A stretch of 64,000 bases of DNA from Psilocybe cubensis (GCA_017499595.2 CM039006.1:1922001-1986000), one strand, 5' to 3'. Numbered from the stretch's first letter, positions 3,233-40,798 are shown. Numbers and translations are program-made. The notes: generated from the sequence alone by a model not told the origin.

Positions 3233-3234
3233 GA

Positions 3235-4863: not shown

Positions 4864-4882
4864 ACGTCCTCTGCCCCCTCAT

Positions 4883-12307: not shown

Positions 12308-12868
12308 ATGATAACGCCTCCAGCGACTCCAGTAAAACATTTTAAAACTTCCGGACCTCAACTTCATGAACGTCGTTGATTTGTTGACTCAGAGAAAATC
12401 AAAGAATATGAAGGCCTTTTAAAGGAGCATACTAACGGCAAGCAAGCTGTCCTTCATAACGAAGCCAAACCCGAAGGATATACACCGATAAACAGAGTAC
12501 ACTTGGAGGGTGACTCTATATGGGATGAGTCAAAGTGGGGGCGGTCGTACTTATCACAGTTTGTAAGACTCATTCTATTCTTTGGAATTGCAGATGTTGA
12601 GCTATTTAATCTGTGCAGGCACAAATAAGGAAGAATAAAGCACAAACTTGTTACTTCGTAGGTCTTTCATGGTTAAATTTTGAGTTTCTATAATTATTGA
12701 AAGAAATCCTCTGCCCCTTCAGCTCACTGCTTTCGAACTGGAGGACCTCTGTTGGGTGCAAGGGATACATTTCAATGCCGACAAGGGATGGAATCCTCCA
12801 CATCTTTATCTGGAGAGGCAGGTTGAACGCCGTGCATGGGAGAAGTACGGTGGGCCTGCAGGTTACAA
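12308..12868 (+). pseudogene. XPA-C-like small-protein gene X1, 5' part, disrupted by the KDZ insertion and an early TGA
   Basis: Encodes SIWDESKW...LEDLCW...YLERQVERRAWEKYGGPAGY, matching paralogs at 41840 and 43453; in-frame TGA at 12377-12379. Confidence 0.75.
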
Positions 12869-13186
12869 CACATAAGACAGTTTATTTATAACGTACATTA
12901 CCTAAGATTTAATAATAAGGATATTACGTGAGACACGGTGGATTTACTTCCGCTACCTAATTAGGAGATTAGCATGATGTACGTGTGATTTAGCCTGGCA
13001 AATCATAGCGTACATGACGTGCCATTTAGCGCTAAATGGAGCCGCCGGGTGGCCTGCGGGATCCGCGCGTCTACCTACACGGAAGAAACACGGGCCGGAA
13101 ATGAGCCGGACGGGTCCATTTGCATCCCGTGTATTGCAAGCAGACGGATCCGCTTGACCCGTGTTGTGCTGTCAGACGGACCCATT
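12869..13186 (+). repeat. Left terminal inverted repeat (318 bp, starts CACATAAGAC)
   Basis: Reverse complement of 39713-40030 except 12974 A versus G. Confidence 0.95.
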
Positions 13187-13264
13187 TGACCCGTATCTTC
13201 CCAGAGAGGGAGGGATATTTGAGAGGTATTGCGAATCAATGAGCACAAGGGCTCCAAAAATAAT

Positions 13265-14733
13265 TTATTCATCTCTACCGGTATACAAATGCTTTTCCAA
13301 ACTCGATTCAATCCCTGCCAGCCCAGCGTCAATTTCCTCCAGCGCATTATAAGTCAGAATTTCTGACTGCAGCTGATGCAGGCGGAGGTTCTTAAACGTT
13401 GTGACCTTGCTGTCATAACTATTGTCGCCGACGGAACTGTCAATTATTTGGTCGTATGTTGCCCGTAGCTGCTGCTCGGTATAATTCTAAAATAGTTGTC
13501 AGTATCTAGTGCTTGGTAATATCTAAGTGCATACATATAGAAAAGGAGGGTTAAAATATGCCGTCTGATCTGTCACATCCTCGAACTCAATGTCAGACTG
13601 GGTGGGAGGCGAACCGGGGTAGCCGCCCATGGGATCAAACCTGCCGTAGGTTCGAAAATAAGGGTTTTGAAGGAGCAGGTGGCATGCTTCAGGGGGTGGA
13701 GAATAGCGACCTTGCTTCCTCTCAGAGGAAATAGCTGGACGAGAGTCCATAATGATTTTGTCGACGACAGACGTGTATGAAACATGTGCTGCCATCAACG
13801 GCAGAGCCACATCATCCCGGATGACAGGCATAGGTGGAGGATCCAGGGTATCTGGAATAACAGGCATAGGGGGAGGAGCCAGGGTAGGTGGAATGACAGG
13901 CATAGGGGGAGGAGCTAGGTTATCTGGAATGATTGGCATTGGCGGCGGAGCCGTGTCGTTCCGGATGACAGGCATTGGCGGCGGAGCCGTGTCGTTCCGG
14001 ATGACAGGCATTGGCGGCGGAGCCGTGTCGTTCCGGATGACAGGCATTGGCGGCGGAGCCGTGTCATTCCGGATGACTGGCATAGGGGGTGGAGCCAGGT
14101 TAGCTGGAATGACAGGCATAGGGGGTGGAGCCAGGTTAGCTGGAATGACAGGCATAGGGGGTGGAGCCAGGTTAGCTGGAATGACAGGCATAGGGGGTGG
14201 AGCCAGGTTAGCTGGAATTACTGGCATTGGCGGCGGAGCCAGGTTAGCTGGAATTACTGGCATTGGCGGCGGAGCCAGGTCTTTCCGGATGACTGGCATA
14301 GGGGGCGGAGCCAGGTTAGATGAAATGACTGGCATAGGGGGAGGAGCCAGGTTATCTGGAATAACAGGCATAGGGGGTGGAGCCAGGTTATCTGGAATGA
14401 CTGGCATTGGCGGCGGAGCCAGGTCATCCGTCCTTGCTGTGCGTTTGCTTTCCTTAGAGTTGCTAATATTTGAAGACATTGCTGATGCTCAGAAATCAAT
14501 TAAAATTTACTTGAATTAATGCCATTAGTCTTACATTTTATAGGTTTTACGGGAGGAGGTTCCTTCAGTTTTTCAAGAAGCCTGGTAAGATTGTTGAGAC
14601 TGGTGTAGTCAATGGGGGAATTTTTGCTAGAGGTGGGAATAAAGTTGTAGGAGGACATACAGTCCAGAAAGTGCAACTGGGTGGGCTTGTTTATATATCT
14701 CACGGAATACAATACTATCCGAGGATTCTCCAT
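13265..14733 (-). CDS. KDZ cargo: proline-rich tandem-repeat protein of unknown function (multi-exon; start uncertain)
   Basis: ORFs 14500..14733 and 13523..14479 plus a last exon ...LEKHLYTGRDE* ending at 13265; 17 x 12-aa xxxAPPPMPVIx units. Confidence 0.6.
13817..14428 (-). repeat. Coding minisatellite, 17 x 36 bp
   Basis: Head-to-tail 36-nt units with blocks of sub-variants (ANL x5, NDT x4). Confidence 0.95.
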
Positions 14734-14962
14734 GACACGGAAATAGATTCACCCGTGTATCGAACTTAGCAACTTTTGCACAAACTGGATCTGGTGAAGA
14801 AATCACATGACTCAGATTGTACATGTTTGTGTATGGTTTTGTTTTGCGGGACCGCTTTTTTTTAGACTTTTTTTAGACTAACTCCAACCACGATCACCAC
14901 CCCACGTTCTACCGTGCCTCACCCATTAACGCGTCTTCCCCCCCAAAAAAAACGCTTTCCCA

Positions 14963-17534
14963 ATGGCCTCTTCATCTTCCACCACCGCCACCTTCGCCCA
15001 ACGCCTTGCTGACTGGGAAAAAACCTTTACAGAGTGCTACCGCAATGGCGAAAGCGCGTTCAACGCTCAGTTGGAGCAGCTCTACAGGGACTTGGTGAGT
15101 AATCAATATCCCTTGAGCATAAGACTTACTGAACAAAAAAAATTCATCCAAATAGGTTCCACTGTGTCAAGAACACGTCAGGGACGCGGCCAACTTCCGC
15201 CTCGTGGATTATGTCGCAAGCCCTGTCGTGTATTCATACAAGACCAGCCAGGGCAAGGACGGCAAGCAGGTAGCAAGGTTCGAGGTCGACTGGGCAAATT
15301 TGCATCATCAAGTCGCAAATTTCAAGGCATACCAGCAAGGCCAGGAGGCACAGAGGAAGAGGAGGGAGGAGGAAGAGCAAGAGAAGAGGAGGGAGAAGGA
15401 GGAGCAAGAGGAGGAGGAGAGGCAGAGGGTGGAGGAGAGGAGGAAGAGGGAGGTGAGGAGGAAGAGGGAGGAGAAGAAGAAGAGGGAGGAGGAAGAGGAG
15501 AGGCAGAGGGAGGAGGAGGAGGAGAGGCAGAGGGAGGAGGAAAGGAGGAAGAGGGAGGAAGAGAAGCAGAAGGTGGAGGAGAGGAGAAAGGATGAGAGGA
15601 GGAAGAGGGAGCAGGAGAGGAGGACCAGGGAGCAGGAGAAGCAGAAGGCGGAGGAGAGGAGGAAGAGGGAGCAGGAGCAGGAGCAGGAGCAGGAGACAGA
15701 CGAGGAGAGGAACAAGGAGGAGACGGAGAAGAGACGGGCCGAGAAGGGCAAGGGCAAGGCAGTCGAACCCCCGGTGGAAGACGGACCCGTGACAGACGCC
15801 CACAAAGACAAGGGCAAACGGAAAGCGGCGGACCCCGTGGAGTCCATTCAGTTGGCTCCAGCGGATTACAGGGGCCCACGGACAAAGAAGGGGGAAATTA
15901 TTCCCCACATTACCGCCTCCAACATGCCCGGTCACCCAGCGTACAGGGAGAAGCTGGAAAGATTGGCAAAGTCCAAGCAGGGGAAATTCAGGAGCAAGGC
16001 GATCATAGGAAGCCACACGAACGAAGACGCGGACGCGGACGTCGACGAGGACGACGAAGGCGATAACAAAGGGGCACCGCCTACCACCCCCACTGCCACC
16101 CCCACCCGGAAGATGCGCACGCGTTCCGTAAAGAAGGACACCGAGGACGATGTCCCCCCCATCAGGAAGGCGCGGTTGAGATCCCAGAAAGTGCGCCAGG
16201 TGCCAGAGGGGATGGTGGACATGGTGGAAAGGTGCACGGCATGCATCAAATTCAAGGTGCCATGCTATGTCAAGGGGGAGACAGGCACTGAGCCTCTCGT
16301 CCCCGTGAAGCACCAATCTTGCGAGTCTTGCAAGTCTCGCAAGATCCACTGCAGCTTCTACCCGGGGCGCAACACCTTCGTGGGTCAATTTTTGACGACG
16401 CCACTGGGAAGCTATGGGGAGGCGTTGAAGTTGGAGGAGGGAGAAGATGTTCCGGCGAAGGGGAAGGCCGGGGAAGGGTCGTTCCCCGAGGATGTGGGAG
16501 AACTGCTTGTGCAGCTCTTTGAGCGCCAAGGCAGAATCATGGAACGGCTGGACGGGTTATCCGCGTCCATGACGGCGATTAATGCACGGATTGCGACGTT
16601 TGCCGAGACAAACTTGGCGGTGGAGAACAGGATGAAGAGCATCGAGGACGGCATCCAAGAGGTGAAGGCCGAATGGACCATGGCCAAAGAACAAGTGGCA
16701 GGAAGCACCTCGCTTTCCGTCACGATGTTCAACGACATCACCAAGAGGATCAACCACGTCCGAGATGTGGTCGACGATTTGCTGGAGCAGGATGAACAAA
16801 GGAATCCCGCCCCCAAACAGGCAGCAGGACCCTCCAAGATGGAGGTCAAACAAGAATTGGGTCCGTCGCGGACCCGTGAACCCACCTCTGTGCCACAATC
16901 CCCAAGCGCACCACCACCGCCAGCACCCCTCCCTTCCCCACCTCCACCTCCAGCAGCACCCATTCTTCCTTCCCCTCCTCCACCACCGCCAGCACCTGTC
17001 CTCCCTTCCCCTCCCCCACCTCCACCCGCACCCGTCCTCCCTGCCGTGTCTGCGCCACCAACAGCGCTATTCTTGCCCGGTTCGACTCCGGAAGCGCCTT
17101 CGCCCCCCCCAGCTGGCCGACCCTCGCTCCCACCGGTACCGCCCATCCTTTCCCTGTCTCCACCACCCCCTCTCCCAGCTCCACGTCCTCGAAGTTTGAC
17201 GTCAAAGGCCGCACCGTTGTCAAAGGGTGCACCATCGTCAAAGGCCGCGCCATCGTCAAAGGCCGGCCCATCCTCAAAGGCTAAGCCATTGTCAAAGGCT
17301 AAGCCATCCTCCAAGGCTGGGCCATCCGGGAATGGACACTCATCGGAGTTGTCTGATCCCTCGGACAGCGACGAGGTTGAAATTGTGGAGGAGGAGGATG
17401 TTGAGATCGTGGCGTCCACGCTGCCCGCGTCGAACATAGCCACAAAGACAAGGGCTGGACGAAAGCGAAAGGCGGAAACGACTCTGGCTGAAGCATCGCG
17501 CTCGCCCAAAAAATCCAAGGCCCAAAAAAAGTAG
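14963..17534 (+). CDS. KDZ cargo: Zn(II)2Cys6-like protein with an E/R/K charged helix, coiled coil and Pro-rich tail (about 836 aa, 2 exons)
   Basis: Exon 14963-15094, GT-AG intron 15095-15155, exon 15156-17534 in frame; CTAC-x6-C-x18-CESC-x6-C; basic C-terminal NLS-like RKRK. Confidence 0.8.
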
Positions 17535-17812
17535 TGTATTTCAATTCTTTGTAACTTTTTTTTGGTCTCCTTTTTTGCCTGTCATATATTACATTGCTCA
17601 CATCCCTATACAATTTTTTCATCATTTGGACTGTATATAGTTTTTACTCTCATGTGCTCATCTGTTTTATACCTCTCCCAAAAAGTAGCACTTGATGATT
17701 TTTAATGAACCCCGCTTTCTGTTTTGATTTTGTGTGAAAACATGTTTGAGAAACATCAAGATAAGAATAAAAAGCATCACATTCAATAGGTATCATGAAT
17801 CTACTTCAACAG

Positions 17813-20123
17813 CTAGGCTTTCAAAGTCTTTTTTCTTTGTCTTTTACCTGCTACAGCAAGCAGACTTGCTTCCTGAAGTGCTAAGGCATCCGAAGTCACA
17901 TTCCTGCGGGCCCGTGTTTCATCCGTATCTGGACTTGTTACTGTCTCCACAAAGGCATCACAAGTCACGTCCCTGCCGGCCCGTGTATTATCCGTGTCTT
18001 GGGTTGTTCCTGTTTGGACTCCATCTTCTTCCACTGTGTCAAGTGGATCTGAGTAGGGCTTTGTTCTTTTCCTAGGTTGAATCCTTCTAGTTGGTTTTGG
18101 CTTAACTGGGGGGGGTACAGAACTCTCTTCATCGGGTCCGTCCATTTCCGCCGTTCCGACATATGGCTTTGTTCTTTTTCTTGGCATAATCTTTCTAGCT
18201 GGCTTGGGAGGCGCCTCCTCAACCTCTGGAGTTGGGCTGGATGATGGATTGACAATTGTTGGGCTGGATCTACTTGGTAGAGAGGGTGGCTCGCTAGATC
18301 TTGAAGGTGCGTCGGTAGGAGTCTCATCCGTCTCTGGCGTGACTTCAAATCTGGCAGTAGTGCGTGGCATCGCGGATGCCGGACTGCCCCGTCCATTATC
18401 AAACTCTGACAGATTGGATGATTCAGAGTCGCTTGAAGATTGGGTTTGAAGTCGTATAGCTTTTTGCCTCAGCCGACGTTTGGTTATGGCTGCAGGAGGT
18501 GGAGGTATCGGGTGGGCTTCTAGGCCGTCAAACAAGTTGGACGGATAGAGAGGTTCCATAATGTCATAGCCATTTCCAAAAACCTTTGAGAATTTAAAGG
18601 GGATGTCTCCTTGCGCTTGACGGTCCCTCCATAGCTTGAGAATTGCAGAAGTTGACTCCAGGCGGAGCCGGCTCGGATCCGTCACGGGGATTGAACTTGG
18701 CCAATACTCTGGATCAATCATTTCTGCAGAACGCCTTTCAAGAGCATCCCAAGGAACACTTGAACCAGGCCTATCCTTGGCTAAAGCTGTATACATAGTT
18801 AGCAAGTTTGTTGAGGACATAGACAAATTACACACCATAAACCTTGTTCATGTAAATTCTAATAATTGACTTTTGCGCATAAGCGACTTCTCTCCCAGTT
18901 GAGCCATAGATAGGACTAGGTATTATTGGAAATCCATTGCTGCTAAACTTGAGGGATTTTTCATGAAACGATGCATCTGGCAGTGCTGGATTGGCCACAC
19001 CCTTCTCTATTTCTGAAATGTGGACGAGGTATTGAACAAACGCTCTGCGAAAAGCGGCCAACTCGGATGGAAAGAGTTGCCCAAAGGAAGGAATTCTGAC
19101 ATCGTCGAGTGCTAGATCGCTTGTCTGGGTCCTTCAATGCCCATCAGTCAACATTAATACGGGCCAAATTATTCCGCCGTGAATGCTTACGGCGGAAACT
19201 TTATCCGCCGTAGGGTGTTTACGGCGGATAAAGTTTCCGCCGTAAGCATTCACGGCGGAACTTGTTCATGCCGTGTTTAACACTTACATTGAGTATTCGA
19301 TTTTACCCTCAATATCATAATGCCCCTCAAAGGTAATGGACCTCATACCCATTCTCTGCCACTTAAGTTTCTCCATTTGTCGAAGTATTTTTCTGCCTTG
19401 CCTGGCAGCAGTCCTGCAGATGTCAGATTGACGGCGGAAACAAGTTCCACCGACTCACTTTGCCTTCATTGATTTTGAAACACCTTTCTTATTCCATTCC
19501 TCGAGGATCTCCATGAACCTGTCCCGCTCCTCCTGAGTCAATCTGGCCTCAACCTGCTTACGTCCTTGTTGATAAAACTTCATCCAATCTTTACTTCCAC
19601 GAGCAGCATTCCCTGATAGAAGCGCAACCTCGGAGTCAATCTCTGCCGACTTCTCCTCACGGAATACCGTCTGAAAGGTTATACGGGAGTTCAATCCTTC
19701 CAATTTTACACCAATTCGATTTGACGCATGGTTTCTAAACCAATTAAAAATTCGCTATTGTGATGGTTTATGTGTGTAACAAAATTTTCAAAGAAACAAC
19801 GAGCTCACATGCTTCTTCACCTTCCATTCTTTGTGTAGTTGCTTATCTTCCTTCCTAGCACGTCTAGAGTATCTGTGATCCCATGTAGCTTGCAGCTCAG
19901 GTATGACAGTGTTCTGTATGTAGTCTGCTTTGGATGACTTTGATGTATCTTTGTAGGGCTGTACATGCTTTTTCAACACGCGCATTTCCTTTGTGGTCCA
20001 TATATTTGATTCTTCCGGCGGAAAGTCACCCTCCGCCGTCTGTCCGCTTCTGGGTCCGTTGTGGGTTGTGGCATTTGCGGTGGAAGGAAGCGGATCCGCG
20101 TCGGGGGATGCATTGGTGGGCAT
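17813..20123 (-). CDS. KDZ cargo: multi-exon HMG-box-like/helical DNA-binding protein
   Basis: Successive minus-strand ORFs 19788..20123, 19455..19703, 18828..19061, 17813..18838 joined by short introns; RIFNWFRN helix, LTQEERDRFMEILEEWNKKG HMG-like helix, VPW...IDPEYWP...DPSRL block. The domain call is inference. Confidence 0.6.
19172..19260. repeat. Perfect 41-bp inverted repeat with a 7-nt loop inside a predicted intron
   Basis: Arms 19172-19212 and 19220-19260 are exact reverse complements. Confidence 0.95.
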
Positions 20124-23900: not shown

Positions 23901-25529
23901 TGAAGATCGAAGTTTGTGATTGGTTATAAACTATATGTAATCCAACAAACACAAACCCCAGGGAAAGAGTGGTCCAGACTGGATAGGACGAAACCTTCTC
24001 CTAAGTTTCTTAAGGGAGGACGCTGCCTAGGATTTAAGTAGATTAGGATGGTGTGGATTGTGAAGGGTAACGAAAGCGAAATAGTAAGATGAGGATAACC
24101 GGGTCGTCTGGGTACGATAGTAAATAAGCCTTCCGAAAATGGGATGGAACCGTGGAATTGGATGGCGGGTGTATATAGAAAGCGTGAAGAAGATGCGTAG
24201 AATGCATATGAGAAATCAATAAATGTGAATCTTAGAGGGGTTGTCTGAAGTGAGTGGGGAACGTTCCGAGGGGAGATAAGAAGATGAATAGGAGTCGGAA
24301 TGTCGTTAACGGGCTGAATCTTGAAGAATGGTGAAAGTGTCTTTAAATTGACAATCTTTCTGAAGCTTGGAATGAAGCTATACGTCGCAGGAGTATTGAC
24401 TGAATCGAGGATGAAAGACTAAGTCTGTCTCGAATGAAATCGCTCCAGATGAGTTGACGGAGGGAAAGGATGTCTTGAATACACTCCTAACGGCGATGGT
24501 TGGAAGGTGTAGAAAGAGTAGGAGCGGTAACGGAGTGAATGGAGGAGAGGAAGTAGGGAAGTACTGGAGGTCTGGATAGAAGTTGGATATTCAACGCTGA
24601 GAAGAAGAGGCGTTGGATGAGGAGGATGACTGGTCTTGGATGAAATCCTCTCTTAATGGAAAGCGAGATGACTTCGGATGAATGGAAGTAAACTTGGTCT
24701 CGACGGAGGGTGGAACTGATGACTGAATTGGACTTGAGTTTGGGCTTGGCTTGAACTTGAGCTTGGAATTGAAATGAATCGATGTGGATTGACTTGAAAT
24801 TGACTTGACTTGGATGAAAATTGACTTGCTTTGAAGAAAGTGGGGACTGGGTGTAACTTTCCTGTCATTTCGTGTAATTCTACTACAGCTTTTATACTAA
24901 AAGCTACGTGAACGAAATACCAATCTAAGCTACTGAAAACCGAGTCATATACTGTACAAAGTGTCAAGAATAAGGCTACGCAAGTGTAACAATAAGCAAG
25001 AACAATAAGACATGTCAATATCGACACGACGACAGATAAGAAATGAATAGGATGAGTAAGAAAGAAGTGTATGACGAAGGTGAATGGTAATACAGATTAG
25101 ATAAAAGAAGCAAGGATGAGTCAGAAAGCATAGAAGATTGGTAAGACAAAGACAATAAAAGCGCAACAGACAATAGAAAAGATATAAATAAACACAAAAG
25201 GATGAGTAAGACAAACCAAAAATAAGTTGGAATGAGTAATCCGCAGCCTGACGCTGAGTAAGACCATTGAATTGATAAAAATAGAGTTGACAGTCCGGCT
25301 GTGCAAGGCAGTGTAGAAAGCTATGCAGTTTGATGGTTGACTGATCCGTCGCATAGCCTTGATGATCTGATGAAGTGACATGATCCGGAATAACGTGGCT
25401 CCCATGTGACAAGTGTTGATAAAATAAGATGTGTGGATGACTTATGGAAAGAATGACTGCTTGGGTTGAGGGCGTCGTGTGTAGATCCAAAATGAACATC
25501 TCATCTCCAATCAGGATTGGGGTATGATA
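23901..25529 (-). repeat. 3' LTR of Gypsy B
   Basis: Matches 33754-35382 with 9 substitutions seen; preceded on the minus strand by the purine-rich GGGACGGA (PPT-like). Confidence 0.95.
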
Positions 25530-25587
25530 TCCGTCCCAAACTTGAGAAATCAACCGTCCCCGGTTGCGGAAGGAAGGGGGGGATAGA

Positions 25588-29658: not shown

Positions 29659-29673
29659 GCACCGTCCAGATAG

Positions 29674-32600
29674 TCAGTACAATGTGTTGGCGTCCAAGGG
29701 ATGTTCTTCCGTGTTGTTGATACCAAAGGGACTTTCTTCTCCATACTGATAGTACCATTCGTTTCCATCATCCATATTTGAAGCTCGCGATTCGTGCATT
29801 GTGCTGGTTATGGGAAGAGGTAAAAGGGAAGAATTGTGGTCGACCTCTTTGCCATTTTGGGCGATTAGTAGCTCTTCTTCATCCTCGTTTAATGGCTCCT
29901 TCGGACTGTCGTGGGCTACCCGCAGAGGATGTACCAAAGCTTTCGGGCCTCGATGATGCTCGTCTACATTTGCGGTGACCGTCGATGATACATGTGTTTC
30001 TTGGTGAATCATAATCGAAAGAGGCGTCTCTGGAAGAGCAGAACTTCGGGAATGAGGTTGGGGAATAGAAGAAGCGTTTTGAGAGCGAATGGATTGGGGA
30101 ATAAAATGAGTCCAGGATGCTGAGTGACATTGGCCCATTGGATAAGCACTGACTGAAGCAGAGTGGTTAGATTGAGACGAGATACCAGTGCGACTGAAGT
30201 GTAGAATAGTTGGAGTCGTCGTCAAGTTTATATGGCTGTCTCTCTGCGGATAAACATAATGGACAAAGGCCGTTCCTGTTCGGTCAGAAACAACACGAGT
30301 AGGAGAAGAATAAGTGGCGTCGTATAGAATCCAGTCTTCAAAGCGCAAGTGGGGGTTGAGCATTCCCATAGCCGTAAGGTGAGTATTGTCAGAAGAGAAT
30401 TGAATAGCTTCTACTTCGGGTGAGCTCAATTGTTCCATTTCTGGATCGTCGTCAGCTGGTTCTTCTTCATGTGGGTCGTTATTGTCTGAAGTGTGGGATT
30501 TGATGGACGGATTGACAGATGGTGATGGTGGCTGTTCTATTTGTGGGGCCTCATGTGTGGAATCGTAAGGTGGTGTGGAAATATGACCATAATGGGCTGT
30601 CGCATTGAATTGAGAAGTTCCCGAGTCATCTTGATACATTGAGTCATAATCGGAAGCGTAGAGACCGTGAGAGGAGTCCTGAGTCGAGTCATGTTCGCAG
30701 TTGGAGTCAGAGAAAGAGGGTGCATCTTGTGAAGTGGATAAGTCCTCATTTGGGTTAGCAGATTCGTCCCGATTCAGAGATTGTTGCCTAGTAAGGATAG
30801 ATAACTCGATCATGGAAGGGGTAGGTGATGGATAGCGAAGGTCGTCCAATAATTCACCGGGTTCTAGATCTTCTTCAATTTCACCTTCTTCGGCATCCGG
30901 ATTAGCTAAGGAGAGGTCGTTGTGTGCTAACATTGTGTGGGGGGTCTTGTCGTAAATGGTATCCGTGAAGTAACGCCGGTCGTGCTGAGTATCAGGTGTC
31001 ACAAGGAATTTCTGCTCACGTGTAGGATCTTTGACGTCATAGAAGGCAATGAAGGTCCCTTCGGGTCGTTCTAGAATGTCCACATAGTTGTCACGGGTCC
31101 ATGGACGTCCCAAGAGTATATCAAACTGGACTTTGTCGGATACATAGCAATGAGCACGCGTCCTGACTGTACCAATATCAAGTTGAACATTTCCAACGAA
31201 TCCAAGCATGTGGGATTTGCCGCCATGAATATCGACCATAACAATAGTATTCCGGCTGTCCATCGGCAACTTGACAATCTTCTTCCAAGCCTGTTCGCTT
31301 AGAATGTTCTGCGTAGATCCACTGTCAATCAAGGCATTGAGTTCGTGACCATTACACATTAATGTGATTCGAAGAAGGGGCTCGTGAGCGCGAAGGGATT
31401 CGACTGAATTGGTCTCGTGCATGTATTGAACAGGTACGTCCTTTTCGGCACTGCGAATGATGTCTAGAACTTCCTTATCGGAAAGCTTTAAGTTGCCGTT
31501 TGCCAATGAAGCTTTGAATTCGTCGACAGTAAGGGTCTTGCCTTTGATGCTGTTGATAAGAAGGGTCCTAAGGTCCTTTGAAACTCCAAGTAGCTCGCCG
31601 AACGTCGCATTAACGGGTTGATTAAGGCATCGTCTGAGAATGGCCATAGTGTCGACAGTTTGGGATATGTCAGAGACACGTTTCTGAGGTGCTGCACGTG
31701 GCTTGGTAACTGATTTGCCTCGTTCTAGACTAGGAGTGACATCTTCCATGATTTGATCATCATCGGCCGGATCAAAAACCTCGTGTCGTTGGGCAGTCTC
31801 GGGATGTTCCGTTGGATTTGCCCTAATCGGGACATTGGGTTGAGCTTGTTTGACAGGAATTGATGGATTCATTTCGGCAGAAGGTTGATTAATTGACGGG
31901 ATTGGGACAGGTTGAATGGAAGTGGAGCTAGGCACGTTGTTCGGCAATCCAGAGTTAGCCGGACGTTTAAGAATAGATGGGATCTGAGAAGAATCCTTAG
32001 CTTTACTCATTTCCGCTCGCTTCCCTTTCAGATACGCGGGTTCCGGAGGTACCACAGCGTCCATGACCTGTTTGCGTGCAGCACGTGTTCGCTTTTCAGT
32101 TGGGATTTGATTACCAGGACCTGCCAGCGTAAACTCAAACTCGTCTTCTCCATCCCAGGTTCCAATGTCGTCCTCTTCTTCTTCTGCAACCATGGCTCTG
32201 TAGTTCTTGAACATCTGACCATAATATGCTTCGGATACGGCTATGCTTGTGGTAGCAACTTGAGGAGGAGGAGGAGGAGGAGGCTGTTGTTGACGAAGGA
32301 CTGCTTGTGCGATTGACTCTCCATTCTGGCGAATAATGCGGGATCCATCAGGGAAGACAACTCGATTGCTACTGTCTCTGGAGATGAGCTTGCGGTTTGT
32401 AAGATCAATGAGCGTCGGGCAGTTGTTGATTCCATGGCCTTGTTGGTGGCAACCATAGCAGATGATCTCGGATGTGGACTGACGTGGTGCTCGTGGTGCT
32501 GGAGGTGCTGACTGACTTGCGATTGGGACTGGCTGAGCTGGCTGTGCACTTGGATTCATAATGGCCGGAGCAATGAGCATGTTAGCAAGAGCGGGTTCCA

Positions 32601-33558
32601 ACTTGATGGCGCGAAGATAATAAATGGCGTACGAAGAATCATGAATGGTGAGCTTCGACATCTGCTTGATCAAGTTCTCCACTTCGTCGTCCTTGTGCGC
32701 TTGCTTCTCTTCCTTGTCTAGATCCTGAAAAATGCGCTTGGTCTCTTCCGGGGGATTGTATGGACGTTCACGGGCATCGCGTGTCTCAATGTTAGGAAAC
32801 ATCTCCTGTAAGTACTTCTTGATCTCGTCAAAGACTGATGAGCGCTCTGGATACGAATCCTTTGGAGGAATAAGAGACGTGAAGGGGCGTGCAGAAGGAT
32901 TGTCAAAGATTCCAACGTCAAAGCGGTCTCGTTTAAAGATGATTTCAACTGCCTTGGTGACGTCTTCAATGGAAAAAGGTGAGGAGAGATCGATATGAGG
33001 ATTAAAGACCATGATCTTGCTTTCGAGCGCAGGTCGGAGGGATTCATTGATTCCTAGCCAGAAGTATTGATTGTATTCCGTCTTGGATATCTTGTTGTTG
33101 TTGAGAAGCCAACCAGCAATGCGAATGTATTGCTTCTGATACTCGCGGAAATCGTCGAGAGAGCGCATAGAAAGATTGGAGTGTTGGAAAGCATAAGCAC
33201 GAAGAGTACTCAACGTGAACTTCTGCGTCGTCCTAGCATGGTCAAAGATTTTGAGCATATCAGTCTTGAGTCGTTCCCATTGCTTGGCATGGTGGCTGGG
33301 TAAACCTTCAATGATTTCTCTGCTCTCTTGGTTGCAGCATTGAACCATGTATCGTACTTTGTCATTGTCGAGAGTGACATTGTACTGATCAAAAATGCGG
33401 TCGCAGTGATCCAAGAAGTTCTTGACGTCGACGTAAGATCCAGTGAATTTTGGAGCAGCACTAGATTTAGGAACAGGCATATCGACAGGAGTACGTTGGA
33501 TGATGGTAGTAGCCATAGTGGGAGTAGAGGATGGAAGCGGATTGCCAGAATCAGTCAT
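29674..33558 (-). CDS. gag: Gypsy Gag-protease, 1294 aa
   Basis: APKFTG gag start, CCHC knuckle, ALIDSGS and ILLGRPW protease motifs; long Ser/Pro/acidic tail. Confidence 0.93.
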   Translation of the reverse strand: MTDSGNPLPSSTPTMATTIIQRTPVDMPVPKSSAAPKFTGSYVDVKNFLDHCDRIFDQYNVTLDNDKVRYMVQCCNQESREIIEGLPSHHAKQWERLKTDMLKIFDHARTTQKFTLSTLRAYAFQHSNLSMRSLDDFREYQKQYIRIAGWLLNNNKISKTEYNQYFWLGINESLRPALESKIMVFNPHIDLSSPFSIEDVTKAVEIIFKRDRFDVGIFDNPSARPFTSLIPPKDSYPERSSVFDEIKKYLQEMFPNIETRDARERPYNPPEETKRIFQDLDKEEKQAHKDDEVENLIKQMSKLTIHDSSYAIYYLRAIKLEPALANMLIAPAIMNPSAQPAQPVPIASQSAPPAPRAPRQSTSEIICYGCHQQGHGINNCPTLIDLTNRKLISRDSSNRVVFPDGSRIIRQNGESIAQAVLRQQQPPPPPPPQVATTSIAVSEAYYGQMFKNYRAMVAEEEEDDIGTWDGEDEFEFTLAGPGNQIPTEKRTRAARKQVMDAVVPPEPAYLKGKRAEMSKAKDSSQIPSILKRPANSGLPNNVPSSTSIQPVPIPSINQPSAEMNPSIPVKQAQPNVPIRANPTEHPETAQRHEVFDPADDDQIMEDVTPSLERGKSVTKPRAAPQKRVSDISQTVDTMAILRRCLNQPVNATFGELLGVSKDLRTLLINSIKGKTLTVDEFKASLANGNLKLSDKEVLDIIRSAEKDVPVQYMHETNSVESLRAHEPLLRITLMCNGHELNALIDSGSTQNILSEQAWKKIVKLPMDSRNTIVMVDIHGGKSHMLGFVGNVQLDIGTVRTRAHCYVSDKVQFDILLGRPWTRDNYVDILERPEGTFIAFYDVKDPTREQKFLVTPDTQHDRRYFTDTIYDKTPHTMLAHNDLSLANPDAEEGEIEEDLEPGELLDDLRYPSPTPSMIELSILTRQQSLNRDESANPNEDLSTSQDAPSFSDSNCEHDSTQDSSHGLYASDYDSMYQDDSGTSQFNATAHYGHISTPPYDSTHEAPQIEQPPSPSVNPSIKSHTSDNNDPHEEEPADDDPEMEQLSSPEVEAIQFSSDNTHLTAMGMLNPHLRFEDWILYDATYSSPTRVVSDRTGTAFVHYVYPQRDSHINLTTTPTILHFSRTGISSQSNHSASVSAYPMGQCHSASWTHFIPQSIRSQNASSIPQPHSRSSALPETPLSIMIHQETHVSSTVTANVDEHHRGPKALVHPLRVAHDSPKEPLNEDEEELLIAQNGKEVDHNSSLLPLPITSTMHESRASNMDDGNEWYYQYGEESPFGINNTEEHPLDANTLY

Positions 33559-33733
33559 AGCGTAAACCAGTTACAGAGTCAGAAAGTGTTGCCTAGAATT
33601 GTTGCCTAGAGTTGCCTAGAAAATAGACCAGCGAAGCGAAGTAACCTGTAAAGAAAAAGAGTCGAAATGGATGGAATGGAAGTGATAAAGTGGTAGATTG
33701 CTGTGTTCCTAATACAAAATCCTAATTAACCCT

Positions 33734-33751
33734 CCCTCGCGGTGGGCTCCA
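33734..33751 (-). other. Primer-binding site of Gypsy B
   Basis: TGGAGCCCACCGCGAG 2 nt downstream of the 5' LTR. Confidence 0.65.
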
Positions 33752-33753
33752 GA

Positions 33754-35382
33754 TGAAGATCGAAGTTTGTGATTGGTTATAAACTATATGTAATCCAACA
33801 AACACAAACCCCAGGGAAAGAGTGGTCCAGACTGGATAGGACGAAACCTTCTCCTAAGTTTCTTAAGGGAGGACGCTGCCTAGGATTTAAGTAGATTAGG
33901 ATGGTGTGGATTGTGAAGGGTAACGAAAGCGAAATAGTAAGATGAGGATAACCGGGTCGTCTGGGTACGATAGTAAATAAGCCTTCCGAAAATGGGATGG
34001 AACCGTGGAATTGGATGGCGGGTGTATATGGAAAGCGTGAAGAAGATGCGTAGAATGCGTATGAGAAATCAATAAATGTGAATCTTAGAGGGGTTGTCTG
34101 AAGTGAGTGGGGAACGTTCCGAGGGGAGATAAGAAGATGACTAGGAGTCGGAATGTCGTTAACGGGCTGAATCTTGAAGAATGGTGAAAGTGTCTTTAAA
34201 TTGACAATCTTTCTGAAGCTTGGAATGAAGCTATACATCGCAGGAGTATTGACTGAATCGAGGATGAAAGACTAAGTCTGTCTCGAATGAAATCGCTCCA
34301 GATGAGTTGACGGAGGGAAAGGATGTCTTGAATACACTCCTAACGGCGATGGTTGGAAGGTGTAGAAAGAGTAGGAGCGGTGACGGAGTGAATGGAGGAG
34401 AGGAAGTAGGGAAGTACTGGAGGTCTGGATAGAAGTTGGATATTCAACGCTGAGAAGAAGAGGCGTTGGATGAGGAGGATGACTGGTCTTGGATGAAATC
34501 CTCTCTTAATGGAAAGCGAGATGACTTCGGATGAATGGAAGTAAACTTGGTCTCGACGGAGGGTGGAACTGATGACTGAATTGGACTTGGGTTTGGGCTT
34601 GGCTTGAACTTGAGCTTGGAATTGAAATGAATCGATGTGGATTGACTTGAAATTGACTTGACTTGGATGAAAATTGACTTGCTTTGAAGAAAGTGGGGAC
34701 TGGGTGTAACTTTCCTGTCATTTTGTGTAATTCTACTACAGCTTTTATACTAAAAGCTACGTGAACGAAATACCAATCTAAGCTACTGAAAACCGAGTCA
34801 TATACTGTACAAAGTGTCAAGAATGAGGCTACGCAAGTGTAACAATAAGCAAGAACAATAAGACATGTCAATATCGACACGACGACAGATAAGAAATGAA
34901 TAGGATGAGTAAGAAAGAAGTGTATGACGAAGGTGAATGGTAATACAGATTAGATAAAAGAAGCAAGGATGAGTCAGAAAGCATAGAAGATTGGTAAGAC
35001 AAAGACAATAAAAGCGCAACAGACAATAGAAAAGATATAAATAAACACAAAAGGATGAGTAAGACAAACCAAAAATAAGTTGGAATGAGTAATCCGCAGC
35101 CTGACGCTGAGTAAGACCATTGAATTGATAAAAATAGAGTTGACAGTCCGGCTGTGCAAGGCAGTGTAGAAAGCTATGCAGTTTGATGGTTGACTGATCC
35201 GTCGCATAGCCTTGATGATCTGATGAAGTGACATGATCCGGAATAACGTGGCTCCCATGTGACAAGTGTTGATAAGATAAGATGTGTGGATGACTTATGG
35301 AAAGAATGACTGCTTGGGTTGAGGGCGTCGTGTGTAGATCCAAAATGAACATCTCATCTCCAATCAGGATTGGGGTATGATA
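33754..35382 (-). repeat. 5' LTR of Gypsy B
   Basis: 1629 bp; differs from the copy A LTR at 1 position seen (34724). Confidence 0.95.
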
Positions 35383-35386
35383 CCGC

Positions 35387-36411
35387 GCAGAAACTTGACT
35401 TGGTCAATAAACGTCGCTCCATGCGGACCCGCGTTGAAGCCTTCTGTCGATCCGCTATGACCTTCATGGGCGAAGATGTCTTGGAGGATATTCAAGGGGA
35501 CATCGCTCCCATACTTGACTATGAAGTCAGTGACAACGACGATCCTGATCTTGGAAATGTCAACATTACCCGCGCGGATCCGGAACGACAGCCGCTTCCG
35601 TTTCCCTCCGCCGTCAAACAAGATTTCTTTGACGGCCTTGACGCGGGAACAAACCTCATTTTAAAAGGGCTTCGCAAACTTGAACTTCAAATAAGACATG
35701 GCCACGCAGAGGACTGTCTGGAAGCGGTCCGGTCAGCCTTGATCCAGCTTTCTTGGCAGTATAAATATCAGGTTCGGACCGCCGACTCCGTCTATATGGG
35801 GACTCGTGCTTGGGATGGCGTCAAGCTTTTGAATGCTTCCTGGAAATTGCACCGGCGACTCTACAACACAAACCGTCAGAAGATGATCTATTTATCTGCT
35901 GGCGTGCGAGACGAGGATAATATTCGGAAACAATATCCCATTCTGCAAGTCCATGATTGCAAGCATAGTAATGCCGTGTCGGATCCGAACATTCACGGAG
36001 GAAGCTCGGACCGTCTAAGTTGGATTTGGAGATCCCGTCAGGGCCTGGACAATGATAATCAATTATACGTTAATGAGTGTGAGTACTGCTATTTGTATTT
36101 CTAATTTTTTTCTCAAGGGCTTCTTAGTCTTTAGGCTAAACTGGCTCCGCGCGCGAGCTCAGAGGAATAGATGGCAAGAGGAGCTGGCCTTGACAAAAAA
36201 GGAAATGGAATGGACTGTCAGATTTTATGTGTATATGGCAAAGACATGGCGTGCACGGCATGATTTTGTTCCTGACAGGTTAGTTGGTCACAGGGCAAAT
36301 GCTCAAAAGCAGATTGCCATGTGGAATGATCTGGGGCGGGCCGCGGATAAGGTCTTCCGTCAAATTAACCCGGAGTATCCGTCCGTGTGGAGATTTATAA
36401 TTACAGATTAA
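35387..36411 (+). CDS. KDZ transposase, 3' part
   Basis: Removing Gypsy B restores GKHPST-A-QKLDLVNKRR in frame; C-terminal LSWIWR and WLRARAQRNRWQEE...EM motifs typical of this family. Confidence 0.88.
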
Positions 36412-36455
36412 CCAGTTCTTTGAACATTCTTGTTGTATCCCATCTCGTTGAATTC

Positions 36456-38080
36456 ATGCACTTACCGCGGCTTTTTAAACCTCCTGTCGAGGACGAACAT
36501 CATCTCCTTACCTATGATGAGCGACGTGCTCTGGCCAAAGTTCATGTCCATATTTGTGGTGCACGGATCCGTGCCGGATACCGTTTGTTCATTGCAAACG
36601 GAGACTCTGTTTCCTCCGTGCGTCGCCAAAAATGGATGTATTTGCTCGACCTGGAGGTGGTAAGACAGTAATTTTGAACGATTATATCTTGTATTGAGAA
36701 CTGGTCGTCAGGCTATACTGCTGAGAGTACTCGGATACTGCTATGTCAATGGATTCCAAGTCGATATTCCATTTTTTATATCAGAAATTCTCAATCAGAG
36801 CGTACATGCCGTTTTGAACCGAACTCCCCACCATCGAGCTGTTCTATTTGAATCTCTAAATCAAAGCTGGTCAGCATGGGAAGATGATGAAATTTTAAAT
36901 CAGACCAAGAGCTGGGGATATTGGTGGAGGGACGGATTTGCTGAAGGCGATGAGTGGCAAGTTGCCTTTGTTACCGTTGAATCGCAAGCAAGAGAATTTT
37001 GGAACAAGGTATGTTTTTTTATTGCTGTGGATTATATCTGATTTGCGTCCTTCCCACCAGGTGGTTCTGCCTGAATACCAACAAGAGGTACTCCGGCTAA
37101 ATAATCAGAGGAAAGAAGCTAAGGAGGGCGCAAGTTCATCTACCTCTGGGCCTCCAAGAAATCAGGAAAACAATCCCAAGGGCAAGGGAAAGGCGGCTGA
37201 ACGGACATCCGTCCCCACCTCGGGGAAGCACGGATCCGCGTTGACGGGAAAGCACGGCTCCGCGTTTTCACCGCCCACGGGGAAACCCAATCCGCCGACC
37301 CGTGTTGCAAACACGCGGGATGAAACATCCCCAATTGCAATTTCTGACCACAGACCGCCCTACTGTCCCCGCTGCGGTCAGCCTATCCTAACGGGCGTAA
37401 TGAGGGAGTTGGCTCACCTGCGCCGGAATGTGGCGGACAAAATGAAAAATGCCCATAAAGCAGTGACTACTTCTTCGGCCGCCTTGGGCAGATATTCTGT
37501 ATTGGAGAAGATGTGGATTGACTCTAAGGAGCACCCGTTCTCTAACGGCAAGGGGCTTTCAGCCAAATACAAATTTCAGCATCCCGTTCACCCTTCTCCT
37601 GACAGTTGGGGCGCTATAACGGCTCAAGCCTGGTCCTTCGAGGTCTCAAAGCTCAAAGTCGCTTTATTTTACATCAACGACATTTTTTATTCTTTTATTG
37701 CCGTCAAGGAACTACCTTTTCATCCACTCTGGTATCATTCGCCACCCTCCAACACTGCAAATATTCATCTCCCAACAGATACTCTGCCTACTCCCGGTTC
37801 CGTCAGCCCTCCGTCAAATGCACACACCAACAATGCCTTCCTTTTTAACGCAAGGTCAAGACCTGTTTTCCCGGGAGAAGAGGATGATATTGATAGTACG
37901 TCCGATACCACTGAATCCTCTACACCAGCTACGTTTTTAGAGCATCTCGCACAGGACTTTGAAGAGGAGGCGGATGAGGAGTCTTCCGCCGGTGATACGA
38001 CGGAGGAGTCAGATGCTTCCGGTAACTCGGAAGAGCTTAGCGAGGACGTGTCGGAAACACCCTGGGATGAGGAATCTTAG
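36456..38080 (+). CDS. KDZ cargo: multi-exon protein of unknown function with a CPRC motif and acidic tail (start uncertain)
   Basis: Consecutive + strand ORFs 36387..36671, 36694..37041, 36938..38080 separated by GT-AG intron-like gaps. Confidence 0.55.
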
Positions 38081-38225
38081 TTGCCCACCTCTCGCACAGG
38101 ACATCGAAGAGGAGGCGGATGATGCCTTTTCCGCCGGTAATACGACGGCGGAGTCCGATGATTCCGGTAACCTTGGAAGAGCTCAGCGCGGGCGCGTCGG
38201 AAACACCCTGGGACAGAGAATTCTG
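37945..38225 (+). repeat. Diverged tandem duplication, period 145 bp
   Basis: TCTCGCACAGGAC...GGAAACACCCTGGGA at 37945 and 38090. Confidence 0.85.
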
Positions 38226-38307
38226 GTTGTTCTGTAGCTTTCGTACCGTTTTGTTTTGGAAATATAAAAAAATCTTCCCCAAACCCAACTTCCAAGTCAA
38301 AAACTGA

Positions 38308-39587
38308 TCATATTTCAAAATCAAAAGTGTTGGTGGCCGGTAAATTTGCAAAAAGATCGTACGTAGTAGACCATCCCGCCTCTTGGACTCCCAGCTCTTT
38401 AAATACATTCCTACGCATGTAATAGACTATGACTGCCCTATCTCCCTCGCACACCGCGCCGTGTTGAAGCAACCTGCCGGTAATTGCAACAAGGGTCATG
38501 GGATCATACTTGTACCGAAGTCCAAGGCCAGGAAGCTCAAGCCGTCCGTGTTCACCCTTCCCAAGTGGCATCAAAAAATCGTACCATGAGTAGCATGACC
38601 CATTATCCCGATGGTACGGTGTATCTCGGTTGCTGATGGCGGTCATGACTCCAAAGGGCGAACTCCATATTGTGAGAATTTGCTTCAATATTTCGGCCTT
38701 ATGGACGAACTCCGGTTCCGCAGCAAGCCGTTGAAGAAATTTTATTCCCGCCCGGTACTGCTCGGGGTGTATAATGCTCAAGATGGCTCCCAGCAAAGCC
38801 GAAGATGTCATCATGTCTCGTATAAACTCCTGTCCAATAGGATTACACAAGTCCAAGAAGACCTCAAGCGGGTTGGACGTCTGAGGAAAATATGAGGCAG
38901 TATAATACTTAGCAAACAAGTTTCTCACCTCATGGCCTTGCTGAAACCATGCCGGGGAAAAGTTAAGATTTCCAGGTTGAAGCCAACCTGGCTCATGTCG
39001 AAAGTAACTGTCATTGACCCTCCAGCTTGTGGCCAAAGGTGCCGCCTTGTGAATCATTGTTTCAATATCCCGTAATGAATTCCACACACTCTCCTGTTAC
39101 TCTTTAGAACGCATAATATAGGAATTAATCGGTCCGTTTCTAAAACTCACCACCCTTGTCTCTGACAAAATACCTGGCAGGTACCACACCAATATGTTGC
39201 CTGCACTATCGATTACAGTTCCGGGCAGGGTTTGGTACTGTAACGTGGAATGCACCGGAGGAAACTGGTCTTTCAGGCGAGCCTCAACGGCAGAATTCTG
39301 ACCCGTGCAACGTGCGCTGAGATGGGTCAAATATTCTTCTGCATCCCACGTCGTATATTCTGCCATTCACACATTATTTAATCTCAATTTTCAAAGCTTA
39401 TTGATTGCATACCTTGATTTTCAAATGCCTGCAAAATCACCTCCACAGCTAGATTGCACTCAAACATGGTCTCAGCACTGAAGTTTTCCCGGATTTGATT
39501 AGGCAGTTCTGCATGCCAAAGACGACTAGCTATCTTTGCCTTCATGTAGTTTGAGAGGGATTGGGTTAGCTCAAAGGCATAATCCAT
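38308..39587 (-). CDS. TET/JBP family 2-oxoglutarate/Fe(II) dioxygenase (4 predicted exons)
   Basis: D..GNILVWYLPG, SPAWFQQGH, IIHPEQY, SNRDTPYHRD (HxD), LELPGLG, LLQHG (distal His), GDRAVIVYYMR (2OG-binding Arg): the pattern of basidiomycete TET/JBP proteins. Confidence 0.92.
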
Positions 39588-39712
39588 ACTATCAGGGTAT
39601 GTGGAAAGGAATTTGCTGCCAGTATAATCTATACACCTTATTACATATATTAACGGTCATCCAATGTACGATTCAAGGCGGATATTTGTCGGAATACAGA
39701 AGCGGATGGATG

Positions 39713-40030
39713 AATGGGTCCGTCTGACAGCACAACACGGGTCAAGCGGATCCGTCTGCTTGCAATACACGGGATGCAAATGGACCCGTCCGGCTCATTT
39801 CCGGCCCGTGTTTCTTCCGTGTAGGTAGACGCGCGGATCCCGCAGGCCACCCGGCGGCTCCATTTAGCGCTAAATGGCACGTCATGTACGCTATGATTTG
39901 CCAGGCTAAATCACACGTACATCACGCTAATCTCCTAATTAGGTAGCGGAAGTAAATCCACCGTGTCTCACGTAATATCCTTATTATTAAATCTTAGGTA
40001 ATGTACGTTATAAATAAACTGTCTTATGTG
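39713..40030 (-). repeat. Right terminal inverted repeat (318 bp)
   Basis: Reverse complement of 12869-13186; followed by TSD GTTACAA. Confidence 0.95.
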
Positions 40031-40798
40031 GTTACAAATCCTACAAAAGCCTGTAAGTCGCCTTTCAATGTGTCAATTTTTATTTTTATTTTAATATCAT
40101 CCCACAAAATGCAGAACAGATAAACAGAGAGAGGATTTAAAGGCTCATTGGCGCTTTCGGCAGCCAGACCTTGATGCTATGATTGTACGCACGCGCGGCT
40201 TCTTCTTGACTCTGACAGAGCATATGCTCATTGTCTTTTTTTATAGAACGCTTTACTTTCCTCTTCAACCTCACGAAATGGTAATCAAGGCACCTCGACG
40301 CCAACAAAGAAGGAGGCTTCGAGGGAGCTTCTATTCATTAAGGCCTCCGATAGTGAGGATGACAGCGATGACAGATTGGGCCACGAGCTCCGTCCCACCT
40401 CACCCATCGAGTCTCCCCGTTGCCTTGCCCTATTTCTCACGTCACCAACCAAACCTCGAGACTCGACGCGGTCTGCACCTAGGACGCCATCGGTTGCAGG
40501 ACCATCCACCCCTGTCAGAACTCCCAGATCCTCTTCGCATCGCAAAGCACCCTACAAATCACCTATAAAGCGACCTCAGGCCAAAAGAGAGCCCAGCAGT
40601 CAACCCAAGGCCGAACCTCAGTCGGGTCGGAACTTAATCATTGGACCAGAAATCATCGACTTAACCGTAGAATCGGAAGACGATGTCTTTTACAACCGTA
40701 CTCCATCACGCAAAGCTTCTACGAGAGCCCGAATTCCCAACAAGTCTTCGCAAATCATTGATATGAATAAAGGCGAAATCGTGGACATCTCAGACTAA
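40031..40798 (+). pseudogene. 3' part of the disrupted XPA-C-like gene X1
   Basis: Continues GY-KSYKSL then a GTAAGT donor, at the same position as the paralog's GF-AAAKKL|GTAAGT (near 44037); downstream S/P/R-rich ORF ends at 40798. Exon linkage beyond the first intron is uncertain. Confidence 0.6.

Follow-up and report, generated by a model that had tools for sequence, protein, structure and literature searches.

Which kind of transposon carries the TET/JBP dioxygenase gene found in this stretch of the Psilocybe cubensis genome, where exactly does it end, and can the copy still move by itself? The stretch, hereafter the window, is 64,000 nucleotides (nt) long (GCA_017499595.2 CM039006.1:1922001-1986000; one strand, 5' to 3'), and all positions are counted from its first letter. 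A preliminary description made from the sequence alone had read positions 12862–40037 as a fully delimited, six-gene transposon that pairs a KDZ transposase with TET. We conclude that an agaric mushroom's cut-and-paste transposon of the Kyakuja type (KDZ superfamily) very probably occupies this interval as a single copy, its transposase gene split by a Ty3/gypsy retroelement.

The presence of a KDZ-family DNA transposon with TET inside a repeat-bounded unit is upheld by Pfam, which matched the CxC2 (E = 1.4e-21) and KDZ (PF18758; E = 6.5e-37, scoring 127.8 bits where the cut-off is 26.6) domains in the transposase, as well as the Tet_JBP domain (PF12851; E = 2.9e-18) in the dioxygenase. The count of six genes and the full cargo list given in the preliminary description do not hold, because they missed a nested Ty3/gypsy retroelement of ~11.5 kb (42% of the reported interval) that interrupts the transposase; moreover, the transposase and the open reading frame (ORF) of unknown function that follows it may be one transcription unit. 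With the retroelement excluded, the element's own DNA amounts to 11,032 + 4,644 = 15,676 nt (~15.7 kb). The insert is a Ty3/gypsy element by its two long terminal repeats (LTRs; 23901–25529 and 33754–35382), its short target duplication, (A)CCGC (4–5 bp), and its domain order of protease, reverse transcriptase/RNase H and integrase, which is read from a gag-protease ORF (29674–33570; Asp_protease) and a pol ORF (25588–29673; RT_RNaseH, Integrase_H2C2 and rve). RVT_1 was absent from the Pfam matches of the insert at E ≤ 0.01.

The LTRs are ~1629 nt each and ~99.2–99.4% identical in the self-comparison, with ~10 differences plus indels. The retroelement recurs at positions 1–4863, in a copy that is cut by the start of the window and has 5 mismatches in 4863 nt to the nested one. 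The nested LTRs therefore show an oddity: they differ at ~10 positions from each other, yet the right one is closer to its counterpart in the separate copy (3235–4863; 5 differences in the whole 4863-nt stretch), which may reflect recombination or template switching. A single TGA (29674–29676, minus strand) parts the gag-protease and pol ORFs, which are in the same frame; the ORFs may be arranged for read-through, or the TGA may have arisen by nonsense mutation.

The retroelement lies in a transposase exon, and the frame ...KLGKHPST/AQKLDLVNKRR runs on across 23900/35387 (...ELRDHVRKLGKHPST / AQKLDLVNKRRSMR...). The same peptide is uninterrupted in P0001, a P. cubensis gene model of 1691 amino acids that is the closest database protein and 99% identical to the KDZ ORF. 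Of 69 KDZ homologues, most match by their C-terminal region an ORF that lies beyond the insert, at 35349–36101 (phmmer), and positions 36130–36408 are 51–66% identical to three metagenome loci. In the copy under study the transposase exon is split by the Ty3/gypsy insertion, and for this reason the copy cannot make its own transposase. It would be mobile only if sister copies supplied the enzyme in trans. The exons of the transposase, of TET and of two further genes (genes 2 and 3; Table 1) are open where checked.

Sister copies are evident in public sequence data. Window positions 34500–44500 were compared with the raw reads of two runs labelled as the same species (X13 and X14) and with contigs from two earlier runs of different studies (X12 and X5); runs X7–X9 (shares 0.17–0.23) were left out. 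Read depth in the element bins (35502–39509) was 511 against 35.5 in the flank bins (41514–44500) in X13 (~14x) and 457 against 41.4 in X14 (~11x). The family thus has roughly 11–14 copies, a rough number given that depth counted only reads at least 95% alike and that the adjoining flank at 40178–41179 is itself at ~3x. At 35382, 345 (X13) and 324 (X14) reads continue into the consensus of window positions 23866–23895 (agreement 0.99) and not into the LTR; because these reads cross uninterrupted, most sister copies have an uninterrupted transposase at the retroelement site. The joint 38687->39682 (27/9 reads in X13/X14, the order used hereafter) marks one copy without 994 nt of the TET gene.

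The raw reads also hold traces of diversity within the family. Many positions in 34500–40030 carry ~30% alternative letters, with transitions dominating, a sign of two sub-families or more. The window's copy has private letters (e.g., at 35995, 37830 and 38858) at which nearly all reads differ. A joint of the LTR end (35382) to position 39833 inside the terminal inverted repeat (TIR), with 2 extra letters between (5/14 reads), suggests another gypsy copy in the TIR of a sister Kyakuja copy.

The ends of the element were located by comparison of the window with itself and then set against the family. The preliminary description was right in giving the element 318-bp TIRs with one mismatch, which falls at repeat position 106 (A at 12974, against 39925), and in placing a 7-bp target-site duplication (TSD), GTTACAA, directly outside both arms, a match with a chance of 4^-7 at a fixed position. 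The element runs 5'-CACATAAGACAGT...ACTGTCTTATGTG-3' and its terminal 12 nt are CACATAAGACAG. Among the family reads, 302/304 pass at 39713 into the reverse complement of 13187–13216 (agreement 0.96/0.95), so the inner edge of the TIR is the same throughout the family. At the outer edge, 586/584 reads exit at 40030 into diverse, unrelated flanks (agreement 0.35), which makes this position the family end; a further 126/126 reads exit at 40031, about the share expected from flanks starting with G. The joints 40030->39491 (14/10 reads) and 39497<->40030 on opposite strands (9/10 reads) reveal one copy nested in another at 39491–39497, in the first exon of TET, and therefore a second 7-bp duplication, GGATTTG.

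The claim that the TSD does not extend to 8 bp was correct as to its length and went too far as a reading of one copy. Positions 12861 and 40030 are both G, so that the 8-bp duplication GGTTACAA fits the single copy if its right end is taken at 40029. The 7-bp length is settled by the family reads, which exit at 40030, together with relatives of the element that begin exactly at CACATAAGACAG. These relatives come from 15 soil-metagenome loci (L001–L015) reached through the metagenome TET relative P0191; none of the loci extends beyond the transposase, and 4 of them include 450 nt or more ahead of the TET start. CACATAAGACAG is present in L013 and L015, 632 and ~660 nt upstream of the TET start, respectively, and in both loci the alignment to the window starts exactly there, with unrelated flanks. 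By alignment to L015, L007 begins 17 nt inside this point, and L014 has a different candidate start with CAC. In all three loci that continue for 3.5 kb or more past TET (L009, L012 and L013), a convergent KDZ transposase is present, as in the window.

The preliminary description also took the near-identity of the TIRs as a sign of recent movement. This argument fails: transposition does not make inverted repeats identical, unlike LTR pairs, and TIR identity is thus no clock of movement. The relative youth of the insertion is better argued from the X12 and X5 contigs. Record 8 of X12 (8465 nt, depth 26) matches 40030–44500 from its letter 996, with 995 unlike letters to the left, and record 15 of X5 (3283 nt) matches 40030–42000 and has 1312 further letters. 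A match that starts at 40030 is the pattern of an empty allele ...GCAG/GTTACAA/ATCC and would mean an empty site in two other strains, likely as a presence/absence polymorphism. Of the empty sites for which an assembly comparison had been proposed, the right boundary is seen in both contigs and the identity of the left flank is presumed.

The TET gene points inward from the right end of the element. Its start codon at 39587 on the minus strand agrees with that of the annotated paralogue P0182 and is separated by 126 nt from the right TIR's inner edge, exactly as first described. The TET ORF aligns to residues 200–418 of CcTet (7vpn; E = 8.4e-27) with the HRD motif, the distal His and the Arg in register. 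By sequence it is an AG-type TET/JBP protein, with a Tet_JBP domain carrying HxD...H and kinship to CcTET. The catalytic His-x-Asp, distal His and Arg are shared with CcTET of Coprinopsis cinerea (PDB 7vpn, 7w5p and 8jkk), and the equivalent of CcTET Asp337 is likewise Asp; Gly331 of CcTET is, in contrast, a Ser in the window's TET, the activity of which is predicted. A search for TET homologues of near length returned no Agrocybe or Ephemerocybe proteins.

These features very probably place the element among the Kyakuja transposons. Kyakuja elements that carry TET, duplicate 7 bp and end in 5'-CA..TG-3' have been reconstructed in complete form (Kojima, 2025; PMC12730594, December 2025). The window's element has the KDZ domain, the 7-bp TSD and the CA..TG termini (5'-CACATAAGACAG...CTGTCTTATGTG-3') and lacks the 8-bp TSD of Zisupton and Dileera (PMC12730594; Cryptococcus KDZ1, PMC11588098). 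The published Kyakuja-1_LB, -1_AuPo and -1_SuBr have in common with it the 7-bp duplication, the CA..TG termini and G+C-rich subterminal repeats (PMC12730594). Three GACGG..CCGT motifs per TIR were found here by regular expression, at repeat positions 241, 275 and 307. Compared at their 5' starts, the published consensuses begin CACATA(A/T)..CAGT, like the window's CACATAAGACAGT; Table S1 gives CACATAATGCAGT (Auricularia), CACATATGACAGT (Laccaria) and CACATAATTCAGT (Suillus) (PMC12730594). Published Kyakuja elements also encode an AG-type TET with HxD and with Asp and Ser/Gly at the positions of CcTET 337 and 331, as in the window, and have consensus lengths of 9–23 kb, against ~15.7 kb of own DNA here. 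The nested retroelement sets the window's copy apart from them. The closest proteins to those of the element are from P. cubensis, and the close transposase homologues are all agaricomycete CxC2-KDZ proteins, including those of Coprinopsis cinerea and Ephemerocybe (Coprinellus) angulata.

Zisupton, which the preliminary description had used for comparison, is the wrong reference clade, since Kyakuja makes 7-bp duplications (PMC12730594). Zisupton elements of fish and fungi share with the window's element a KDZ-superfamily transposase, TIRs and target duplications; unlike it, they make 8-bp duplications and form a separate transposase clade (as cited in PMC12730594, Figure 6 legend and text). 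The Cryptococcus elements KDZ1, KDZ2 and KDZ3 (Dileera; PMC11588098 and PMC12810828) are also giant multi-gene KDZ elements (9–11 kb) with ORFs of unknown function and long TIRs (139–241 bp), and their mobility has been shown experimentally. They differ from the window's element in their 8-bp (4–8 bp) duplications, in having CxC1 and not CxC2, and in having no TET.

Within Kyakuja, the element is a new family of a known kind. Table S1 of Kojima (2025) has no Psilocybe, Hymenogastraceae or Strophariaceae entry, and the window's TET peptide is absent from the table in the part available. The earlier claim that the sequence shows directly that TET moves inside the element stands as to the position of TET within the unit; as a demonstration it was not new, Kojima (2025) having come earlier. 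The accessible text of that article mentions no further Kyakuja proteins, and long TIRs and the conserved gene 3 apparently do not figure in it. A literature search found nothing on Kyakuja with HMG or on KDZ transposons in Psilocybe, and a broader search returned only unrelated GTF2I/HMG papers.

Gene 3 is the best conserved of the additional genes. It has an HMG-box-like region in the exon at 19455–19751 and a GTF2I-like C-terminal domain at ~18500–18790. Its last exon matched 103 representative proteins at E ≤ 1e-3, Agrocybe proteins align with it over ~400 amino acids (E = 1e-37 and 1e-39), and the alignment shows the same architecture in Psilocybe, Agrocybe, Ephemerocybe and Dentipellis. 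The window's own gene 3 has no Pfam match to an HMG box or to GTF2I; among 90 relatives, 11 match the GTF2I-like repeat PF02946 at E ≤ 0.01 (best 3.3e-6) and 2 match HMG_box_2. The model of the C-terminal domain has a predicted local distance difference test (pLDDT) score of 86, and its top six Foldseek matches are all GTF2I domains, but with E-values of 0.25–1.5. For the middle-exon model (pLDDT 77.9), the top six matches of the wide search with VIA-align are all HMG boxes, with Z of 4.8–5.4 (under the caution level of Z 8) and a root-mean-square deviation of 2.3–3.0 over 59–63 residues. In the PDB, neither model had a Foldseek match at E ≤ 0.001. The label "HMG-like" has no more than modest support, and the window's copy lacks a Pfam match to it.

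The genomic context of gene 3 relatives suggests a tie to KDZ transposases. Apparently 4 of the 10 genome-derived homologues are on a contig with a KDZ transposase or have an adjacent locus tag: these pairs are on a 19,805-nt contig of Agrocybe pediades, on contigs of 78,496 and 472,891 nt of Ephemerocybe angulata, and in P. cubensis, where JR316_0009877 stands beside JR316_0009878. This is indirect evidence that gene 3 is linked to KDZ transposases in three genera. The gene 3 relative P0076, used as a single query for metagenome loci, found no relative, and L001–L015, which reach no further than the transposase, gave no match to gene 2 or gene 3.

The region 3' of the transposase encodes an ORF with a CPxC motif and an acidic tail. 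It had no Pfam match and no usable Atlas match, and among the 69 KDZ homologues it matched P0001 only. A positional counterpart in L013 is an ORF of 394 amino acids with a CPNC motif and an acidic tail, and weak tblastn matches were found in L012 (E = 1.9e-4) and L011 (E = 0.006), so that the region is a conserved part of the sub-lineage. It may be a gene of its own or may extend the transposase at its C-terminus in this lineage alone.

The two left-most ORFs are less readily interpreted. The Pro-rich repeat ORF overlies a 36-nt x 16.9 minisatellite (13821–14428) and has no Pfam match, and its status as a gene is doubtful. The product of gene 2 is charged and coiled in one region, carries a C-x2-C-x6-C-x18-C-x2-C-x6-C cluster (at 16233) and has a tail rich in Pro; relatives were found in P. 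cubensis only (3 clusters). The name of Zn-cluster gene that it had been given is not supported: the match to Zn_clus (PF00172) scores 18.4 bits, under the cut-off of 21, covers profile positions 1–14 only, and the six-Cys spacing includes an 18-residue loop. Atlas match scores of 0.82–0.85 are of lead grade only.

The element is enriched in the 9-mer (T/A)TCCGCCGT. With at most one mismatch, the window holds 27 matches, where shuffles lead one to expect 9.5. The element's own 15.7 kb accounts for 24 of them (17469–39295) and the nested retroelement for none; the 8 that are exact are all at 18146–21714. Six build a perfect palindrome within a gene 3 intron, and two belong to a tandem array (35 nt x 3) inside an intron of the transposase gene (22832–22944). 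One may speculate that these copies are putative binding sites, e.g., for the Cys-cluster protein of gene 2. As to a signal like that of repeat-induced point mutation, the observed/expected CpG ratio was 0.75–0.93 in the element versus 0.64–0.93 in the flanks, from which nothing can be claimed.

Table 1. Features of the Kyakuja-type element, in window positions.
Feature	Position	Strand	Basis or remark
Left TSD copy, GTTACAA	12862..12868	.	Identical to 40031–40037
Left TIR, 318 nt, starts 5'-CACATAAGACAGT	12869..13186	+	Self-comparison; reads at family left ends
Pro-rich repeat ORF, stop to stop, 321 amino acids	13523..14488	-	ORF over tandem array 13821–14428
Gene 2, ~838 amino acids, intron ~15098–15155	14963..17534	+	Model from paralogues P0070–P0072
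Gene 3 (HMG-box-like/GTF2I-like), ~5 exons	17813..20123	-	Homologues, alignment, structure models
89-nt perfect palindrome, TTCCGCCGT / ACGGCGGAA units	19172..19260	.	41-nt arms, 7-nt gap; gene 3 intron
KDZ transposase, 5' part (CxC2 and KDZ RNase-H-like core), up to retroelement insertion	21003..23900	+	Pfam; P0001 residues 1–874 by tblastn
Nested Ty3/gypsy LTR retrotransposon	23901..35382	-	LTRs, ORFs, Pfam domains, TSD
KDZ transposase, 3' part (conserved C-terminal region)	35383..36408	+	P0001 residues 872–1103 on 35382–36077
ORF region of unknown function, CPxC motif, acidic tail	36664..38080	+	Fused to transposase in model P0001
TET/JBP dioxygenase gene, AG type, inward-pointing from right end, exons open	38308..39587	-	Pfam; CcTet alignment; P0182 model
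Right TIR, 318 nt	39713..40030	-	Self-comparison; family reads; metagenome relatives
Right TSD copy, GTTACAA	40031..40037	.	Identical to 12862–12868

The element sits between a left neighbourhood rich in transposable elements and a right side of ordinary genes. To the left, a Ty1/copia pol ORF of 1769 amino acids (4865–10171; RVT_2, rve and gag_pre-integrs) abuts the gypsy copy at 1–4863. Joined across the insertion, the flanks (12380–12868 and 40038–40300) form an apparent exon end, ...LYLERQVERRAWEKYGGPAGY/KSYKS followed by GTAAGT, in a host ORF without a Pfam match. The target region may be a low-copy repeat, given the ~3x depth of the flank at 40178–41179 in X13 and X14. On the right, a 78-nt inverted repeat (50919/53541) was considered as a transposon and rejected, as it consists of two identical tRNA-Asp(GTC) genes; these lie at 50924–50995 and 53542–53613, in opposite orientation, and flank a mitochondrial-carrier gene (52461–53282).

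Other readings of the interval were weighed against a Kyakuja-type copy split by a retroelement. A Zisupton- or Dileera-like KDZ element with the 8-bp duplication GGTTACAA and its right end at 40029 is permitted by the identity of 12861 and 40030 in a single copy and would suit clades that duplicate 8 bp (PMC12730594, PMC11588098). We find it hardly credible because the family reads exit at 40030 and not at 40029, the joints of the nested copy give 7 bp, L013, L015 and the three published Kyakuja consensuses all start at the C of CACATA, and the transposase has CxC2, where the Dileera elements of Cryptococcus have CxC1 (as far as the available parts of the published accounts go). Very improbable, too, is a six-gene unit that is intact and autonomous and has moved very recently. 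The single mismatch in 318 nt, the contigs of other strains that appear to be without the insertion and the open exons all agree with such a unit, but the 11.5-kb retroelement within the transposase gene refutes autonomy, the ~10 differences plus indels between the LTRs indicate that the nested insertion is not brand new, and TIR identity does not date movement.

The order of events admits another history, in which the retroelement inserted first, elsewhere, and the whole 27-kb composite then moved in trans to its present site. With both TIRs intact and sister copies that have an uninterrupted transposase, such trans-mobilisation is possible in principle. We nevertheless consider it improbable: the counts fit a single retroelement-bearing copy (by our estimate, ~345 crossings correspond to ~13 copies x ~26 usable reads), no second composite copy was found among the reads on 34500–44500, and the efficiency of cut-and-paste transposition generally drops with length. 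More weight, though still a doubtful standing, belongs to the proposal that the transposase and TET are the functional core and that genes 1–3 (the Pro-repeat ORF, gene 2 and gene 3) and the ORF of unknown function are accidental passengers or annotation noise. It agrees with the restriction of gene 2 relatives to P. cubensis, with the minisatellite under the Pro-repeat ORF, with the lack of Pfam matches for four ORFs of the window, and with the silence of the accessible text of Kojima (2025) on further Kyakuja proteins. It is at odds with the ~400-residue alignments of gene 3 to Agrocybe homologues, with the 4 of 10 genome-derived gene 3 homologues that are apparently beside, or on a contig with, a KDZ transposase, and with the positional counterparts of the "unknown" region in L013 and L012.

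Some points weigh against the view of the interval as a Kyakuja-type insertion that we prefer. The TIRs are 318 nt here, whereas the Laccaria families Kyakuja-1_LB and -2_LB are given as having "no TIRs"; in the available part of the source this is not presented as a feature of the whole clade (PMC12730594), and we take it as a difference that does not exclude membership. The Kyakuja placement is a probable one, based on how long the duplication is, on the motif at the termini, on CxC2 and on the type of TET. The empty site is deduced from the right boundary in the X12 and X5 contigs. Finally, transcription, transposition and TET activity are all predicted from sequence.

A mechanism consistent with these features can be proposed for a Kyakuja-type element. 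The DDE-type KDZ transposase would bind the TIRs, probably at the three subterminal GACGG..CCGT motifs, excise the element and integrate it with a 7-bp staggered cut. The HMG/GTF2I-like protein of gene 3 may be a DNA-binding or DNA-bending cofactor. HMGB1 assists both RAG and Sleeping Beauty. The Ty3/gypsy element would have inserted into the transposase exon after, or possibly before, arrival at the present site. That TET protects the copies from silencing was reportedly proposed by Iyer, who is said to have named the clades in 2014. In the same hypothesis as put forward by Kojima (2025), TET would oxidise 5-methylcytosine on or near the element and so counter methylation-based silencing.

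Taken further, and tentatively, Kyakuja elements may be units of at least three genes, in which the transposase and TET are joined by gene 3 as an architectural cofactor that acts on the long repeats and subterminal motifs. The Psilocybe lineage would then have added gene 2 with its possible CGG-type sites, (T/A)TCCGCCGT, and the 318-nt TIRs would set a sub-lineage apart from the Laccaria families that lack such repeats.

As far as the class goes, the locus adds little, as TET inside complete Kyakuja elements with 7-bp duplications is already in Kojima (2025). At the level of the family, it provides a precisely delimited Psilocybe family with long TIRs and about a dozen copies, mostly with an uninterrupted transposase, probably polymorphic between strains in presence and absence, and including one self-nested copy and one that lacks part of TET. 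Such a family is a good natural system in which to ask whether a transposon-borne TET shields its own copies from methylation, and the conserved companion gene of HMG/GTF2I-like type offers a lead, open to testing, on the way in which such giant elements bring their ends together.

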